A stretch of 64,000 nucleotides of DNA, from contig JBJKQU010000061.1 in assembly GCA_046705025.1 (NCBI GenBank), positions 20,007 to 84,006 of the forward strand, in the 5' to 3' direction. The stretch comes from Candidatus Kryptoniota bacterium (GTDB lineage Bacteria > Bacteroidota > Ignavibacteria > Kryptoniales > JAKASW01). The notes below the pieces were generated by a model, which was not told the DNA's origin, made no database searches, and saw nothing but the letters and a program-made list of their open reading frames with translations. Below are positions 9,266 through 64,000 of the stretch, one piece after another (the stretch's first letter is position 1; the number at the start of each line of letters is the position of its first letter). The position numbers were made by a program, and so were the translations under genes.

Positions 9266-10072
9266 TTACCAACTGCCACCGGCGCCTCCGCCGCCGAACG
9301 AACCTCCGCCGCCGCTGAACCCGCCGAAGCCGCCGCCTCCTCCGCCGAATCCTCCACCACCGCCGAAGCCGCCGCCGCCGAATCCCCCGAAAGGAGGAAA
9401 GAACCACCAGCCGCTTCCGACTCCGCGTGAAGAAGCAGAATATCTGCGGTTCCCGAATAACATCGGAAAAATGAAGACTACCAGGAAGATGACGACGAAA
9501 GGTATTGCACTTCCACCGCCACCGCCCCCGCCCCGCTCCTTCTTCAGATTGGCGTGGAAAGTGCCCCCGATGAGCGCTTCAAGAGCAACGACACCCTTGC
9601 TGATGCCCGCGTAATAGTTGTTCTGCTTGAACTCCGGCAGGACAATCTCGTTTAATATGTAACTGGAATACGCATCGGTCACAACCCCTTCGAGGCCGTA
9701 CCCGACCTGAATCCTCGCTTTATGATCACCCACATCGATCGCAAAGAGTAACCCGTTATCCTTTCCCTTCTGCCCGATCTTGTTCTTCTCGGCCGCAGAT
9801 ATGGAATAATCAAAGAGGTCTCCCTGCGGAACAGACTTGACGATGAGCACGACAATCTGAGTCGACGTTGTGTCCTGATATGCTTTGAGCTGCGAATCAA
9901 GCGTGGCCATTTGATCTGCCGTAAGCACCCCGGCCTGGTCCGTAACGAACTGAGTCAGCTTTGGAACATTGCTTTCGAAATTGTTCATCGACTGCGCGAA
10001 GACTACACGAGAAGTGCCGACCGACACAATCGCAATTAACAGAAGCAGCTTGAATATATTGGAATGACGCAT
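9266..10072 (-). CDS. TPM domain-containing protein (YgcG-like) with TM segment and Gly-rich tail
   Basis: 268-aa ORF with a signal peptide, a TPM core (TSTQIVVLIV...GLLFAIDVGDHKARIQVGYGLEG), a TM segment and a GGGFGGGGG tail. It sits directly downstream of lemA. Confidence 0.8.
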   Translation of the reverse strand: MRHSNIFKLLLLIAIVSVGTSRVVFAQSMNNFESNVPKLTQFVTDQAGVLTADQMATLDSQLKAYQDTTSTQIVVLIVKSVPQGDLFDYSISAAEKNKIGQKGKDNGLLFAIDVGDHKARIQVGYGLEGVVTDAYSSYILNEIVLPEFKQNNYYAGISKGVVALEALIGGTFHANLKKERGGGGGGGSAIPFVVIFLVVFIFPMLFGNRRYSASSRGVGSGWWFFPPFGGFGGGGFGGGGGFGGGGGGFGGFSGGGGSFGGGGAGGSW

Positions 10073-60373: not shown

Positions 60374-60931
60374 TTATTTTGCGGATTCGTAGTAGAATAA
60401 CACATTTCCCGATTTGAAACATTCGGCTCTCAAGAACTTCAGCTCCAGCTTCCTGCCTATTCCCGCAAACGGTTGTCTTGCAGTGCCTAACACGACAGGA
60501 CACACCATCATCCGGCACTCATCGATCAGGCCCTGAGAGATCAGACTGCCGGCCAGAATGCAGTTTCCGAACATCCCTATCTCCTTTCCCTATTGCCGCT
60601 TAACCTTTAGCACCTCCTCATCGGCATTCCCTTTAACGAGCCGGGTCTAGTTCCATTCCACCTTGTCCAGAGTCCTTGAGAAGACGATTTTCGCAACCGA
60701 GTTCATCAAACCGGCGACTACCGGGTCGTTTTTGATCGCTTCCGGCGTCGGCCAGTAACCTGCCATCAGCTCGTAAGTTGCCCTTCTGAACAACAAGGTG
60801 CCGGTTTCATTCAACTGTCCGATTGCACATTCGTTGAACTCGTCGTCGACGTTATGCCAGATGATATCGTGGTCGGGTCCTTCGAAGAAGCCATCGACCG
60901 TTATCATGTCGAACAGGAAAACCTTCCGCAT
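60374..60931 (-). pseudogene. RibD_C/dihydrofolate-reductase-family gene interrupted by two in-frame TAG codons (tandem paralog of 60936-61493)
   Basis: ORFs 60647..61000 and 60374..60574 are in the same frame. The continuous reading is ...KVEWN*TRLVKGNADEEVLKVKRQ*GKEIGMFGNCILAGS..., with TAG at 60649-60647 and 60592-60590. It spans 185 codons and is collinear without indels with the 185-aa neighbour. Confidence 0.7.
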
Positions 60932-60935
60932 TCTT

Positions 60936-61493
60936 CTACTCTCTTTCCTTCTCGTAATGAAGTGCCACCATGCCCGACTTGAATGTTCTCGTCTCAACAA
61001 GTGTCAGGTTAATTCTGTCGGTCAAACCTTCAAACAGCCGTCTTCCTTTTCCGACGACGACGGGGTGCACCACCAGCCAATACTCGTCGATCAATCCGGC
61101 TTTCATCAGCTGACGGATAACGCTTATCCCGCCGATTGACAGATCTTTGCCGTCTTGTTGTTTCAACTTTCTGACGGCCTCAACGATGTCGTCGCGGATC
61201 AGAGTGGTGTTGTTCCAGTCGGCGCTCCCGAGTGTTCTAGAGAATACCATTTTTGGTATGGCGTTGAACTTAACTGCAAATTCGCGCACGCTCTTTGTTG
61301 TAGAAGGATCATTTGAAATTTTGGGCCAGGCGTGCGCCATCAGCTCGTACGTCACCCGCCCGAAGAGTGCGATGCCGGTGTTGTCGAGCAGCCCGCTGAA
61401 GAACTCGTGATGCTCATCGTCTGGGGCGACGGCGACCGTGTGGTCGGCGAAGCCGTCGAGAGATACATTTATTGCTAAGACTAGTTTTCTCAT
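60936..61493 (-). CDS. dihydrofolate reductase family protein (RibD C-terminal domain, YwjB-like)
   Basis: 185-aa ORF with MRKLVLAINVSLDGF, LFGRVTYELM, VFSRTL and GLIDEYWLVVHPVVVGKGRRLF. Confidence 0.85.
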   Translation of the reverse strand: MRKLVLAINVSLDGFADHTVAVAPDDEHHEFFSGLLDNTGIALFGRVTYELMAHAWPKISNDPSTTKSVREFAVKFNAIPKMVFSRTLGSADWNNTTLIRDDIVEAVRKLKQQDGKDLSIGGISVIRQLMKAGLIDEYWLVVHPVVVGKGRRLFEGLTDRINLTLVETRTFKSGMVALHYEKERE

Positions 61494-61511: not shown

Positions 61512-61943
61512 TCACTTTTGTTTCGGATACGTGTAGTTGATCATCCACCTGGTTCCATACTTATCGGTAAACATGCCGAAGTAGGCTCCCCAGAACTCAT
61601 CATGGATAGGCGTCTCAATTTTACCGTCAACGGAAAGTTTGTCGTACAATCTTTTCGCTTCGTCCTTGCTGTCGGCTTCAATCGAGATATTATAATTATT
61701 GCCGAACGTTAATTGTTGTCCCATGGATTCGAGCGCGTCGGTACCCATAAGCACGTTTCCCTTTCCAATCGGCAAAGCGACGTGCATGATTTTCTCTTTT
61801 TCCTTTGCTGGTACTCTGTCCGCGACAGGAGTCTCACCGAATCGCTGTATCGCGGTGAACTCCCCGCCGAAAACGGACTTGTAACAGTTGAACGCTTCCT
61901 CGGTGGTGCCGGGAAGATTTATGTACGGATTCATTGTGGCCAT
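61512..61943 (-). CDS. VOC (glyoxalase/PhnB-like) family protein
   Basis: 143-aa ORF with the pattern NPYINL.G...EAF.FYKSVFGGEF...MH..L.....LMG.D...........F.I....D..E....Y..L, typical of PhnB-like VOC proteins. Confidence 0.85.
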   Translation of the reverse strand: MATMNPYINLPGTTEEAFNCYKSVFGGEFTAIQRFGETPVADRVPAKEKEKIMHVALPIGKGNVLMGTDALESMGQQLTFGNNYNISIEADSKDEAKRLYDKLSVDGKIETPIHDEFWGAYFGMFTDKYGTRWMINYTYPKQK

Positions 61944-61979
61944 CTTTCTAATACCTCCTATTTTAACTAATCATGCCTT

Positions 61980-62220
61980 TTCGAAATACTAAATTCGAAA
62001 TCCTAAACTCTAAATGCCGCCTTGTCCGAAGGACGCCTTCGGCGCGGTATCCCGACACATAAATATTTTTGACGGGACAAATCCCAAATTCAAAACTCAA
62101 AACGTAAAAACGAAGCCGGCTGCATTTAGAATTTGTGGCGCTCAACTTCCAATAGTACGTATATGCGCCATGGCACAGGGCGCTCATTTAGAATTTAGAG
62201 TTTAGTGCTTAGAATTTTCT
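61980..62220. repeat. intergenic inverted-heptamer repeat element, copy A (left CTAAA-heptamer arm, copy-specific insert with GC hairpin, A-rich spacer, GC palindromic core, right TTTAG-heptamer arm)
   Basis: The left arm is TTCGAAA TACTAAA TTCGAAA TCCTAAA CTCTAAA (61980-62014). The right arm is TTTAGAA TTTAGAG TTTAGTG CTTAGAA (62187-62214). Segment 62129-62220 aligns gap-free to 63379-63470 with about 80/92 identities by my manual count. Confidence 0.8.
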
Positions 62221-62240
62221 CCCTGGTCTCTAGGCCCATT

Positions 62241-62735
62241 TCATTTGCCATCAAACGCCTTTTCCAGCGCGGCGATATCGAACTTCTTCATCTTCAGAAA
62301 AGCTTCAGTCACTCGCTCGACCTTCTTCGGGTCTTTGTCTTTCTGCATTTTTCTCAGGATCGTTGGGACTATCTGCCATGAAATCCCGTACTTGTCCTTG
62401 AGCCATCCGCACTGTTCGGCTTTCGGATCGGCGGACAGTTTCCCCCAGTAGTAATCGATCTCCTCCTGTGTTTCACACGCCACGGCGAAGGAAATAGATT
62501 CGTTGAACTTGAAGAATGGCCCTGCGCTCATGAACGTAAATTCCTGGCCGAGAAGCTCGACGGTAACGATCTCTACGGTTCCAGATGGCGTGTTGGGAAG
62601 AGTTCTCGATTCTTTGATCTTCGATCCTTTTTCGCCAGAGGTGGATCCACCTCCGGCGGAGAACACGGAAATGTAGAACTTCGCCGCTTCAGCAGCTTCT
62701 TTGTCGAACCACAGGAACGGTGTTATCGATTTCAT
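62241..62735 (-). CDS. VOC family protein (PhnB / 3-demethylubiquinone-9 3-methyltransferase-domain type)
   Basis: The start at MKSITPFLWFDKEAAEAAKFYISVF is the typical N-terminus, with AAGGAGG upstream. The protein is 164 aa with C-terminal CGWLKDKYGISWQIVP. The ORF-track 24-codon extension is repeat-derived and trimmed. Confidence 0.85.
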   Translation of the reverse strand: MKSITPFLWFDKEAAEAAKFYISVFSAGGGSTSGEKGSKIKESRTLPNTPSGTVEIVTVELLGQEFTFMSAGPFFKFNESISFAVACETQEEIDYYWGKLSADPKAEQCGWLKDKYGISWQIVPTILRKMQKDKDPKKVERVTEAFLKMKKFDIAALEKAFDGK

Positions 62736-62773
62736 AGCAACCTCCTTTATCATCAATCCGAGAAACTGTTTCC

Positions 62774-62820
62774 TTTGAAACTCCAACCGCGAAATCCTAA
62801 ACTCCAAACGAATTCAAAAC
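62774..62820. repeat. degenerate partial copy (left-arm heptamers only) of the repeat element, copy C
   Basis: TTTGAAA CTCCAAC CGCGAAA TCCTAAA CTCCAAA followed by an A-rich AATTCAAAAC. It shares CGAAATCCTAAACTC with copies A and B. Confidence 0.5.
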
Positions 62821-62839
62821 GTCGGGGTACCTGCGATTC

Positions 62840-63250
62840 TCAACCTCTTTTTGATTTTGAACGTCGCTGCTCGCTTTCATCAATCATCGCGCTCAGATCC
62901 GCAGCCGGCCTGATCTCCCAGCTTCCTCCTCCTCTACCTAGGGCAAGGGAAGGATGATTCGACATCAACTGAATCGCATGGTTCAGGTCGTCGGCCCCTA
63001 ATATCATGATCCCGCCGATTTGCTCTTTTGTCTCCGCAAACGGGCCGTCGATCACGGAGACTCTTCCGTTCTGGATCCGCAAAGTAGCCGCATTCGTTCC
63101 CGGTTGAAGGGCCTCGCCGCCGGCATAGTGGCCGGTTCTTTTCAACGCCTCGTCGTACGTAAAACATTTATCCACGAAATTGTTCCGTTCGATCTCGGAG
63201 AAGTTCGCGAATATGTCTTCGTTCATGTATCCAAGACAAATGTATTTCAT
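62840..63250 (-). CDS. YciI family protein
   Basis: The start at MKYICLGYM has AGGAGA upstream. The protein is 136 aa with the DGPFAETKEQIGG core. The ORF-track extension is trimmed. Confidence 0.85.
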   Translation of the reverse strand: MKYICLGYMNEDIFANFSEIERNNFVDKCFTYDEALKRTGHYAGGEALQPGTNAATLRIQNGRVSVIDGPFAETKEQIGGIMILGADDLNHAIQLMSNHPSLALGRGGGSWEIRPAADLSAMIDESEQRRSKSKRG

Positions 63251-63280
63251 TTCAGTCTCCTGTTGTGTTCCACTCAACGT

Positions 63281-63470
63281 GTGAAACTCTAAATCCGAAA
63301 TCCTAAACTCTAAACAATATCAAAAATCAAAACCAAAAACTTCAAAACTGCTTTCGAGATTTTCAGAATTTGTATTTTGAATTTGTGGCGCTCTACTGTT
63401 AAAACTGTGTATATGCGCCATGGCGCACAGCGCTCATTTAGAATTTAGGGTTTAGTGCTTAGAATTTTCT
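63281..63470. repeat. intergenic inverted-heptamer repeat element, copy B
   Basis: The left arm is CTCTAAA TCCGAAA TCCTAAA CTCTAAA (63287-63314), followed by a 7-nt phased A-run spacer. The core contains the perfect palindrome GCGCCATGGCGC (63415-63426). The right arm is TTTAGAA TTTAGGG TTTAGTG CTTAGAA (63437-63464). Confidence 0.8.
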
Positions 63471-63918
63471 TCCGGTGTTTCTCAATCGCTTCTTGTACCA
63501 CCTTACTCTCTCCTGCTTCTCGGACCTCAGGAGGCATCTCGGACCAATCGAATATTTGCCGAACTTCGATCGTGGCGCCGGAATCGACTGTCACAGCCGG
63601 ACAACGCTTCGCCCATTCGACGGCTTCTTCCTTCGACTTCACATCGATCAGCCAGTAACCGCCGACCACTTCTTTCGCTTCGACGAACGGGCCATCCGTT
63701 ACAGTCGTCTTCCCGTTCTTGAATGTGACCCTTGCCCCCATCGTCAGCGGATGAAGCCCGTCCAACGAAACGAGTATTCCGGCTTTGGCCATTTCCTCGT
63801 TCTACTTCATCATCTCGGCGACGGCCTCCTTCGGCGGCGCGAAATTCTCATCCGCTTTCTGCTTCGACGACGAATTCGGCTGATACTCCGGCGGAATCAT
63901 AAATATCATGTATTTCAT
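63445..63918 (-). pseudogene. YciI family gene with a single in-frame TAG at codon 39 (or a read-through/recoded gene). A 115-aa ORF restarts 3 codons later.
   Basis: My manual translation starts from the ATG at 63918, with AGGAGG 8 nt upstream. It reads MKYMIFMIPPEYQPNSSSKQKADENFAPPKEAVAEMMK*NEEMAKAGILVSLDG..., and the TAG lies at 63804-63802. It continues in frame into ORF 63445..63792 with DGPFVEAKEVVGGYWLIDVKSKEEAVEWAKRCP. Confidence 0.65.
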
Positions 63919-64000
63919 TTCAAACCTCCTCTTGTTTTCTAAGTAGTCGTTTGACAACCGGCGAAATTGACAACGTCGCAGAAAAACATTCCTGACCCGG

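Follow-up and report, generated by a model that had tools for sequence, protein, structure and literature searches.

Inverted heptamer arrays in an operon of a Candidatus Kryptoniota bacterium and their probable relation to 23S rRNA intervening sequences

In one operon of a Candidatus Kryptoniota bacterium, small minus-strand genes are separated by A/T-rich elements in which heptamers of the CTAAA type face their own inverted copies. What kind of element are these, and how did they come to lie between the genes? A preliminary description of this DNA had presented them as an unrecognised family of intergenic elements resembling miniature inverted-repeat transposable elements (MITEs) or repetitive extragenic palindromes and bacterial interspersed mosaic elements (REP/BIME). 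We analysed a stretch of 64,000 nt (GCA_046705025.1, contig JBJKQU010000061.1, positions 20,007 to 84,006; hereafter the window, to which all coordinates without a locus name refer), which contains two complete copies, A and B, and one partial copy, C. These are probably open reading frame (ORF)-less, partly decayed copies of a heptamer-armed gene cassette of the intervening sequence (IVS) type, encoding a PF05635 protein, that were inserted into this stress operon.

Copies A, B and C and their dispersed family

A repeat search of the window detected a direct repeat of 103 nt, 85% identical, at 62121-62223 and 63371-63473 (offset 1250), which agrees with the constant offset previously noted for the core and right arm of A and B. 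It also detected a 44-nt left-arm family with three copies (starting at 61982, 62776 and 63282) and inverted pairs of 18-33 nt between left and right arms, and TRF reported period-7 arrays at 61980-62015 and 62186-62217. When the window was scanned with the motif TTTAGNNTTTAGNNTTTAG, allowing up to 2 mismatches, 10 matches were obtained against 0.08 expected, all of them within 61982-63462. An nhmmer profile, built from an alignment of 63 canonical family members from outside the window, matched the window only at 63279-63388, 62774-62820 and 61981-62014. The match to B scored 68.4 bits (E 2e-19), and the family consensus was colinear with B from end to end save for a 51-nt core. By repeat search, TRF, motif count and profile, A, B and the partial C therefore exist as described. 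Their parts are as follows.

61980-62219, plus strand: copy A, complete composite element (repeats, motif, profile, arm-pairing RNA fold)
61980-62014, plus strand: A, outer A-arm, TTCGAAA TACTAAA TTCGAAA TCCTAAA CTCTAAA, holding the family 19-mer (TRF, profile)
62015-62077, plus strand: A, module 2, a 63-nt GC-rich insert at the CTAAA/CAAA junction, homologous to L060:~720-790
62078-62112, plus strand: A, inner A-rich heptamers (sequence reading, inverted repeat, fold)
62113-62123, plus strand: A, loop
62124-62135, plus strand: A, short inner T-rich arm
62136-62186, plus strand: A, GC core of 51 nt, TGGCGCTC-N18-TATGCGCCATGGCACA-GG-GCGCTCA, at the ATTTG/TTTAG junction
62187-62219, plus strand: A, outer T-arm, TTTAGAA TTTAGAG TTTAGTG CTTAGAA TTTTC (repeats, TRF, motif)
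62774-62822, plus strand: copy C, A-arm only, TTTGAAA CTCCAAC CGCGAAA TCCTAAA CTCCAAA CGAATTC AAAACGT
63280-63469, plus strand: copy B, complete element plus core (repeats, fold, profile)
63280-63314, plus strand: B, outer A-arm
63315-63349, plus strand: B, inner A-rich heptamers
63350-63358, plus strand: B, loop
63359-63385, plus strand: B, inner T-rich arm
63386-63436, plus strand: B, GC core of 51 nt with a perfect 14-bp palindrome, TGCGCCATGGCGCA
63437-63469, plus strand: B, outer T-arm, overlapping the 3' end of the YciI-1 gene

The 13-nt perfect inverted match reported for the arms of A was confirmed by direct reading (62003-62015 and 62193-62205). This copy also has a second GC-rich insert, of 63 nt (62015-62077), which had been counted as part of the element; the length of the core, earlier put at roughly 50 bp, was refined to exactly 51 nt in both A and B. 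Gene calls and domain assignments placed A between two VOC genes and B between two YCII-domain genes, as had been claimed. With polarity defined by the 19-mer, which lies on the plus strand, and all local genes on the minus strand, the three copies are antisense to their host genes.

A, B and C all contain this 19-mer, CGAAATCCTAAACTCYAAA. A scan against one genome per prokaryotic species gave at least 119 loci (numbered here with the prefix L), compared with ~9 matches expected by chance on our own estimate. Further copies beyond the window were thus found, and the dispersed intergenic inverted-heptamer family is real. The matches listed come from ~98 assemblies and metagenome-assembled genomes (MAGs) of more than 15 phyla (bins by accession prefix), and from tailed-phage contigs. 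Bin labels include many lineages of the Candidate Phyla Radiation (CPR)/Patescibacteria, Omnitrophota, Planctomycetota, Desulfobacterota, WOR-3, Nitrospirota and Dehalococcoidia, as well as Bacteroidetes, Ignavibacteriales, Elusimicrobia, Lentisphaerota, Cloacimonadota and one Methanophagales bin. Nearly all listed loci are A/T-rich hairpins of 120-170 nt that occupy intercistronic spacers and share one architecture: an outer A-arm (..TAAAYYCTAAATCCGAAATCCTAAACTCTAAA-CAAA), inner A-rich heptamers, a short loop, inner T-rich heptamers and TTTG-TTTAGGATTTAGAGTTTAGTGTTTAGAGTTT. The T-arm was found no more than 260 nt downstream in 95 of 126 instances of the 19-mer among the matches listed. A profile search detected ~140 elements in 829 kb of 19-mer loci, with up to 3-4 per 8 kb, and none in 308 kb of control loci. 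Family members adjoin unrelated genes, for example carB, atpG, rplB and a phage major head gene.

Six of seven matches in IMG/VR belong to one tailed-phage group (portal phrog_64, major head phrog_212; L121-L123 and L125-L127), in which a short heptamer hairpin lies directly upstream of the major head gene (e.g., L122:3960-4077). Because of this short copy upstream of the head gene, phages are a possible vehicle of the element. The phage element in L125 is identical to one in a Dehalococcoidales MAG (L048). A blastn search of PLSDB plasmids and INPHARED phages returned no match.

With regard to known families, Rfam 15 gave no match at the gathering score in the whole window (and only noise at E<=5 in 61900-63520), nor in five canonical family loci. 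No description of extragenic copies or of the CTAAA/TTTAG arms was found in the literature, and a full-text search with the arm sequences returned only bisulfite-PCR primers; the related papers that were found, on the Coxiella IVS, on rRNA insertions in CPR bacteria and on a diversity-generating retroelement, do not mention such copies. To the extent that no described RNA family was matched, the family was rightly called unrecognised; its full-length form, however, is a cassette for a PF05635 23S-rRNA-IVS protein, and one of its members lies in helix 45.

A four-helix-bundle gene cassette and a member in 23S rRNA

The same heptamer arms bracket PF05635/TIGR02436 ORFs in L017, L056, L217 and L218. 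The ORFs in L017 and L056 have 125-134 codons and match the 23S_rRNA_IVP/TIGR02436 four-helix-bundle families (E 1e-13 to 5e-21). L217 and L218/219, fetched by exact protein, contain the complete unit, with the T-arm starting just past the stop codon, and in full-length L218 the arms are predicted by RNA folding to pair around the ORF. The full-length unit comprises ~480 nt: an A-rich arm of ~65 nt of NNYNAAA heptamers, the PF05635 ORF and a complementary T-rich arm. The A-arm often starts with ATG, in frame, three heptamers being equal to seven codons. In L079, L087 and L104, only the first (CCGTATGAYTTA) and last (..IFGSIVEKSK*) codons of the ORF remain between the arms, and, judging from these sequences, they are therefore internal-deletion intermediates.

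Relatives of the L056 ORF number at least 7989 proteins, and the best 120 are 78-100% identical, mostly over full length. Within the full-length alignments, the arm-encoded N-terminus MLNPKLE(I/T)LNSKQ(A/T)QMSKTQNSKPYDL corresponds to the A-arm read in frame. Gene callers take the A-arm as the N-terminus of a 'four helix bundle protein' (MLNPKLEILNSKQ..) in L056, L217, L218 and P0138-P0257; an internal ATG of the gene gives a 119-aa form, and the arm-encoded extension is a predicted one. The closest solved structure to the cassette protein is 2rld, an uncharacterised protein. In the cassettes examined, the longer unit codes for the four-helix-bundle protein alone, with no transposase. No reverse transcriptase or template/variable repeat pair adjoins them, and the window also has neither.

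A member of the family was also found in rRNA. L047 is a 23S rRNA gene of Saccharibacteria (1251 bits) that carries an ORF-less hairpin at ..CCGAAGCTGCGGATGCCGTGCATAGCACGG/../CCGCGCTGTGCGCGGCGTGGTAGGAGAGC, and the position of this insertion is helix 45 of 23S rRNA, the classical IVS site. The same 23S rRNA gene also has two group I introns (L047:1989-2495). Knowledge of bacterial rRNA IVSs and of the S23p/four-helix-bundle ORFs in them goes back to ~1990; we know of no accepted account of IVS origin, of the mechanism of mobility or of the function of the protein. IVSs are selfish stem-loop elements whose stem is cut by RNase III, and those of Coxiella, Leptospira, Brucella and Xanthomonas carry this ORF family (PMC4990558). 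In the Coxiella IVS, the S23p ORF lies in the loop and is preceded by tandem heptameric repeats (GACAGAT x3), and excision by RNase III without religation is known for the IVSs of Salmonella, Leptospira and Coxiella (PMC4990558). rRNA genes of CPR bacteria contain both 23S_rRNA_IVP ORFs and short ORF-less insertions (PMC11270868).

The present family resembles 23S rRNA IVSs in that its full-length form has long terminal inverted repeats forming a stem, with a PF05635 ORF in the loop, in that ORF-less or decaying versions occur, and in its sporadic, horizontally transferred distribution. In both, tandem heptamers adjoin the start of the ORF, and the L047 member shares the site. However, the window copies and almost all of the ~140 members lie between protein-coding genes, the ~60-nt CTAAA/TTTAG arms are unrelated in sequence to the Coxiella repeats, and the arm is often read as an N-terminal extension. 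The window copies also differ from IVSs in being antisense to transcription and in carrying nested GC modules. Since the full-length form has a PF05635 ORF and one member is in helix 45, the family sits with bacterial IVSs rather than with transposase-dependent MITEs or with REP/BIME elements of REP-associated tyrosine transposases (RAYTs). The PF05635 ORF, absent from the window copies, is present in relatives with the same arms, so that the window copies are ORF-less derivatives. Thus, both the membership of A, B and C, as ORF-less members, in the heptamer-armed PF05635 cassette family and the inclusion of a 23S rRNA IVS in this family are firmly supported.

Other systems share single features with the family. 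Heterocystous cyanobacteria possess intergenic tandem 7-nt repeats, the short tandemly repeated repetitive (STRR) sequences, sometimes in inverted arrays; these differ in sequence and are not known to be associated with a gene cassette or with insertions in rRNA. CPR and related lineages are rich in diversity-generating retroelements (DGRs), and the present element abounds there. PF05635 is a Pfam family resembling the DGR accessory protein Avd, and the cassette gene falls in the same four-helix-bundle family (PMC10053308); in contrast to Avd, the cassettes examined have no reverse transcriptase or template/variable repeats beside them.

The window leads to a large and apparently undescribed extragenic population of IVS-type elements, in which hairpins number in the hundreds and cassettes, almost identical to one another, in the thousands, in CPR, Omnitrophota, Planctomycetota, Desulfobacterota and phages. 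Its filled and empty sites, deletion intermediates and rRNA-inserted copy open IVS mobility to comparative genomics and simple reporter assays, and make testable such questions as the role of an Avd-like protein outside DGRs and whether RNase III processes operon transcripts at the hairpins. In genome annotation, the family accounts for long A/T-rich intercistronic spacers and for the Lys/Asn/Gln-rich N-termini of MAG 'four helix bundle proteins'.

Insertion into the operon and the nested GC modules

Across the family, the upstream stop codon, mostly TAA, lies at the left border of the element (median 0 nt; -10..+16 nt in 43 of 69 cases), and the following start codon lies a median of 20 nt past the right border. 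The 19-mer strand was the same as that of both flanking genes in 41 cases and opposed in 10, with convergent flanks in 6 and divergent flanks in 2. In the window, the elements (A, B and C) end 29-38 nt before the following start codon and leave the ribosome-binding site intact. Target-site duplications, which the preliminary description had proposed to look for, were not found in 105 elements (longest shared flank word 4.52 nt, compared with 4.39 nt in mismatched controls), nor by eye at A, B and C; a 9-bp direct repeat, AAGTGAAAT, flanks the copy in L060 and occurs only there. Neither a transposase nor a RAYT adjoins any copy in the loci inspected, which extends to copies elsewhere the earlier observation that no transposase is attached.

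In relatives whose VOC-1 is 81-86% identical (L208-L215), the same genes form a compact operon without the element. In L208, the spacers are 12-63 nt long or are replaced by 4-nt overlaps, and an extracytoplasmic function (ECF) sigma gene (Sigma70_r2/r4_2 plus DUF6596) heads the operon. No profile match was found in 80 metagenome loci of VOC-2 homologues. At the YciI-VOC-RibD_C operon, the element was found only in the window, L001 (the same organism), L060 and L216. As it is absent from the operons of L208-L215 and from the VOC-2 loci, the element is not a plain conserved promoter, the reading that had been named as a possible refutation.

The junction between YciI-2 and YciI-3 was found in three states. 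It is empty in L128, where the genes overlap by ATGA, and thus provides the empty site that had been sought in relatives; it carries a canonical hairpin without core in L216, and an element with core in L060. Core-bearing elements accordingly occupy three different sites in two genomes (A and B in the window, and L060). YciI-3, which in relatives separates YciI-2 from VOC-2, is missing from the window (62736-62839, set against L060:659-983, L128 and L216), and copy C aligns with the L060 arm upstream of VOC-2, the assignment of YciI-3 in L060 being based on protein comparison. Copy C is therefore probably what a deletion between two elements left behind, YciI-3 having been lost in the same event. 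That the window copies are lineage-specific insertions into the operon is firmly supported.

The GC-rich parts of A and B were initially treated as a defining part of the family, which did not hold. The canonical family element has no core, and a motif scan found the core only twice in the window, with no occurrence outside A and B. In both, it lies exactly where inner and outer arm meet, at ATTTG/TTTAG. At the mirror junction, CTAAA/CAAA, copy A carries module 2, which has a homologue at the like junction in L060 and contains the hairpin CCGAAGG-ACG-CCTTCGG and TCCCG..CGGGA. In an alignment of cores, TTGTGGCGCTC and ATGCGCCATGGC were invariant, the 16-18-nt spacer between them was variable, and GCGC followed. 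L211/L212 have a core-like copy without heptamer arms, beside a GC palindrome, in a spacer of 334 nt that precedes RibD_C. Given this arm-free copy and the core-less canonical elements, the core is a separate module, and its nature as a nested, lineage-specific add-on that also occurs on its own is firmly supported. A GC-rich palindrome, CCTGCCTGCC..GCAGGCAGG, was observed within or beside heptamer elements of unrelated lineages (L211:1715-1745, L023, L033, L079 and protein P0224) and may be a second widespread mini-repeat.

As to what the core is, the data allow two readings: a small REP-like repeat nesting where the arms join, or an operator belonging to the gene cluster and travelling with the element. 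It is possible, if doubtful, that the core alone is a functional operator of a stress-gene cluster, captured by the heptamer element and spread with it, rather than a second selfish repeat. All known copies are in the same kind of gene cluster (two in the window, L060 and L211/L212), the flanks and central palindrome are invariant while the spacer varies, and the orientation differs among genomes, as a palindromic site would predict. However, there are only four independent copies, and three of the four lie at the identical internal junction, which fits composite spread or targeted nesting. Moreover, small unrelated GC hairpins are found in the arms of other members (L006, L023, L033 and L079), and a metagenome scan for the core-plus-arm junction gave no matches.

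Mechanism, alternatives and the host operon

In the IVS-type reading, internal deletion of the four-helix-bundle gene would leave hairpins of 120-170 nt. In the lineage of the window, such copies would have entered the spacers of the normally compact YciI-VOC-RibD_C operon, between an upstream stop codon and a downstream ribosome-binding site and antisense to the genes. Nested where their outer and inner arms meet, these copies carry GC-rich modules, either one or two of them (the core and module 2). When transcribed in the polycistronic mRNA, the arms would form a ~55-bp stem of 5-bp helices with 2-nt mismatches or wobbles between them. By analogy with rRNA IVS stems, RNase III probably cuts this stem, and the cut may uncouple the cistrons without benefit to the host. 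Such an effect would make the element selfish or neutral, and its influence on the host may be neutral or mildly disruptive. RNA folding is consistent with a hairpin: the arms pair in the predicted folds of A, B, L216 and L218, the z-scores are -4.70 for B, -2.05 for A and -4.83 for L216, and the predicted energy of the host mRNA strand is -58 kcal/mol for B and -78 kcal/mol for A.

Several points weigh against this interpretation. Only four ORF-bearing armed cassettes were inspected as DNA, the remaining link being through protein N-termini, and A, B and C contain neither the ORF nor a remnant of it, with no PF05635 gene in the 64-kb window. The window copies belong to the minority, antisense orientation; they also lie outside rRNA, in mRNA spacers, and so not in helix 9, 25 or 45. 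The cross-phylum identity is inflated by a 19-mer query that favours conserved arms, and MAG bin labels could include mis-binned contigs. Folding showed no preference for the sense strand (-33.7 compared with -36.1 kcal/mol, the antisense strand being slightly better), so that selection could act on DNA rather than RNA. Finally, the stems are AU-rich with regular mismatches, and cleavage by RNase III is proposed on the model of rRNA IVSs.

Among the alternatives, a classical MITE or REP/BIME DNA element, whose arms would act as terminal inverted repeats for a transposase or RAYT from another locus, which would cut or copy the element into other sites, is unlikely. The window copies do resemble MITEs in being short, ORF-less, internal-deletion derivatives of a longer unit, bounded by inverted arms; the family is multicopy, with several copies per genome in unrelated contexts, filled and empty sites show presence/absence polymorphism, and the 9-bp direct repeat AAGTGAAAT surrounds the L060 copy. 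This part of the MITE comparison stands, but the longer unit encodes a four-helix-bundle protein and no transposase, and the 105 elements gave no target-site duplication. REP, BIME and REPIN sequences are likewise intercistronic palindromic repeats that form mRNA hairpins and can nest or cluster. The resemblance to them does not go further, since the present family has no RAYT beside the copies inspected, no GTAG-type head, another unit length and arms that are ~60-nt arrays of imperfectly paired heptamers rather than short terminal repeats; also, REPs are species-specific, whereas these arms cross phyla. Very unlikely, and for the arms already excluded, is local regulatory DNA, in which the heptamer arrays and core would form an operator or promoter array of the YciI/VOC/RibD_C operon, bound, for example, by a ribbon-helix-helix-type repressor with 7-bp heptads. 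The copies do lie just upstream of three ribosome-binding sites, the core has a 14-bp palindrome and conserved GGCGC repeats, and a core-like module also precedes RibD_C in the related cluster of L211/L212. Yet the heptamer element is absent from the 80 VOC-2 homologue loci and from L208-L215, the same sequence is found by unrelated genes in ~98 other genomes (matches listed) and inside 23S rRNA, and promoter scans were nonspecific. A scan for sigma-70 promoters and terminators found nothing specific within the elements, and -33/-7 motifs of the Bacteroidetes type, sought by eye in both core and module 2, were inconsistent from copy to copy.

A cis-regulator at the RNA level, bound by a HutP-like protein that reads UAG-N4 and governs translation of the downstream cistron, is highly improbable. 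In the host mRNA, the arm before each ribosome-binding site reads UUUAGAG UUUAGGA UUUCGNA UUUAG.., that is (UAG-N4)n, which may resemble HutP sites, and the family shows an orientation bias relative to genes; against this, the element is not confined to one orientation and is also found in rRNA and phages, its two arms pair, and no such protein is linked to it. The arrangement of small same-strand genes (VOC, YciI, RibD_C) parted by imperfect palindromes also recalls an integron-type array of gene cassettes with attC sites, but this is scarcely credible and effectively refuted by synteny, as relatives hold the same genes in compact operons without palindromes. By inspection, the arms have no RYYYAAC/GTTRRRY boxes, the element flanks housekeeping genes elsewhere, and no integrase turned up, although the window was not searched for one. 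A bolder version of the IVS-type reading is speculative and rather unlikely: the armed four-helix-bundle cassette would be an autonomous selfish element of an undescribed kind, whose pentameric Avd-like protein binds the roughly five heptamers of its own array, in the form of RNA or ssDNA, recruits reverse transcriptase or host machinery in trans, and copies the hairpin into transcribed spacers such as operon junctions, rRNA helices and phage late operons. The window copies would then travel as non-autonomous passengers, and the GC core would be a second parasite, one directed at the arm junction. If true, this would account both for where bacterial IVSs came from and for the occurrence, in uncultured phyla, of thousands of 'four helix bundle' genes that are almost identical.

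The genes of the host operon are listed below. In the direction of the minus strand, the order is YciI-1, B, YciI-2, C, VOC-2, A, VOC-1, RibD_C and second RibD_C.

63445-63918, minus strand: YciI-1 (YCII), upstream of B, with an in-frame TAG at 63802-63804
62840-63250, minus strand: YciI-2 (YCII), between B and C
62241-62735, minus strand: VOC-2 (3-dmu-9_3-mt/PhnB-like), between C and A
61512-61943, minus strand: VOC-1 (Glyoxalase/3-dmu-9_3-mt), downstream of A, start 36 nt from the arm
60936-61493, minus strand: RibD_C
60374-60931, minus strand: second RibD_C, broken

The outer T-arm of B encodes the last seven codons of YciI-1 (..KILSTKP*) and its stop codon (63445-63447), whereas the orthologue ends in ..EKQKQTA*. 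At the in-frame TAG of YciI-1 (63802-63804, minus strand), the orthologue in L208 (3149-3598) has Tyr (MMKYNEEL), and the frame is open on both sides; YciI-1 is either a pseudogene or affected by a sequencing error. The frame of the second RibD_C gene (60374-60931, minus strand) is interrupted by two TAGs, at 60647-60649 and 60590-60592, and is otherwise continuous. The three in-frame TAGs of these two genes, within 3.5 kb, suggest a decaying operon. Recoding of TAG was considered and rejected: TAG is a normal stop codon elsewhere, used by 30 of the 144 long open frames, and the residues replaced differ. Upstream of YciI-1, the region 63930-63975 (minus strand) reads GTTGTCAATTTCGCCGGTTGTCAAACGAC, with two TGTCAA boxes and CGAC, and may be an ECF-type promoter. 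Elsewhere in the window, (CCG)n, 15-nt and 6-nt tandem repeats at 9306-9385 and 9513-9536 are probably a Pro/Gly-rich coding stretch.

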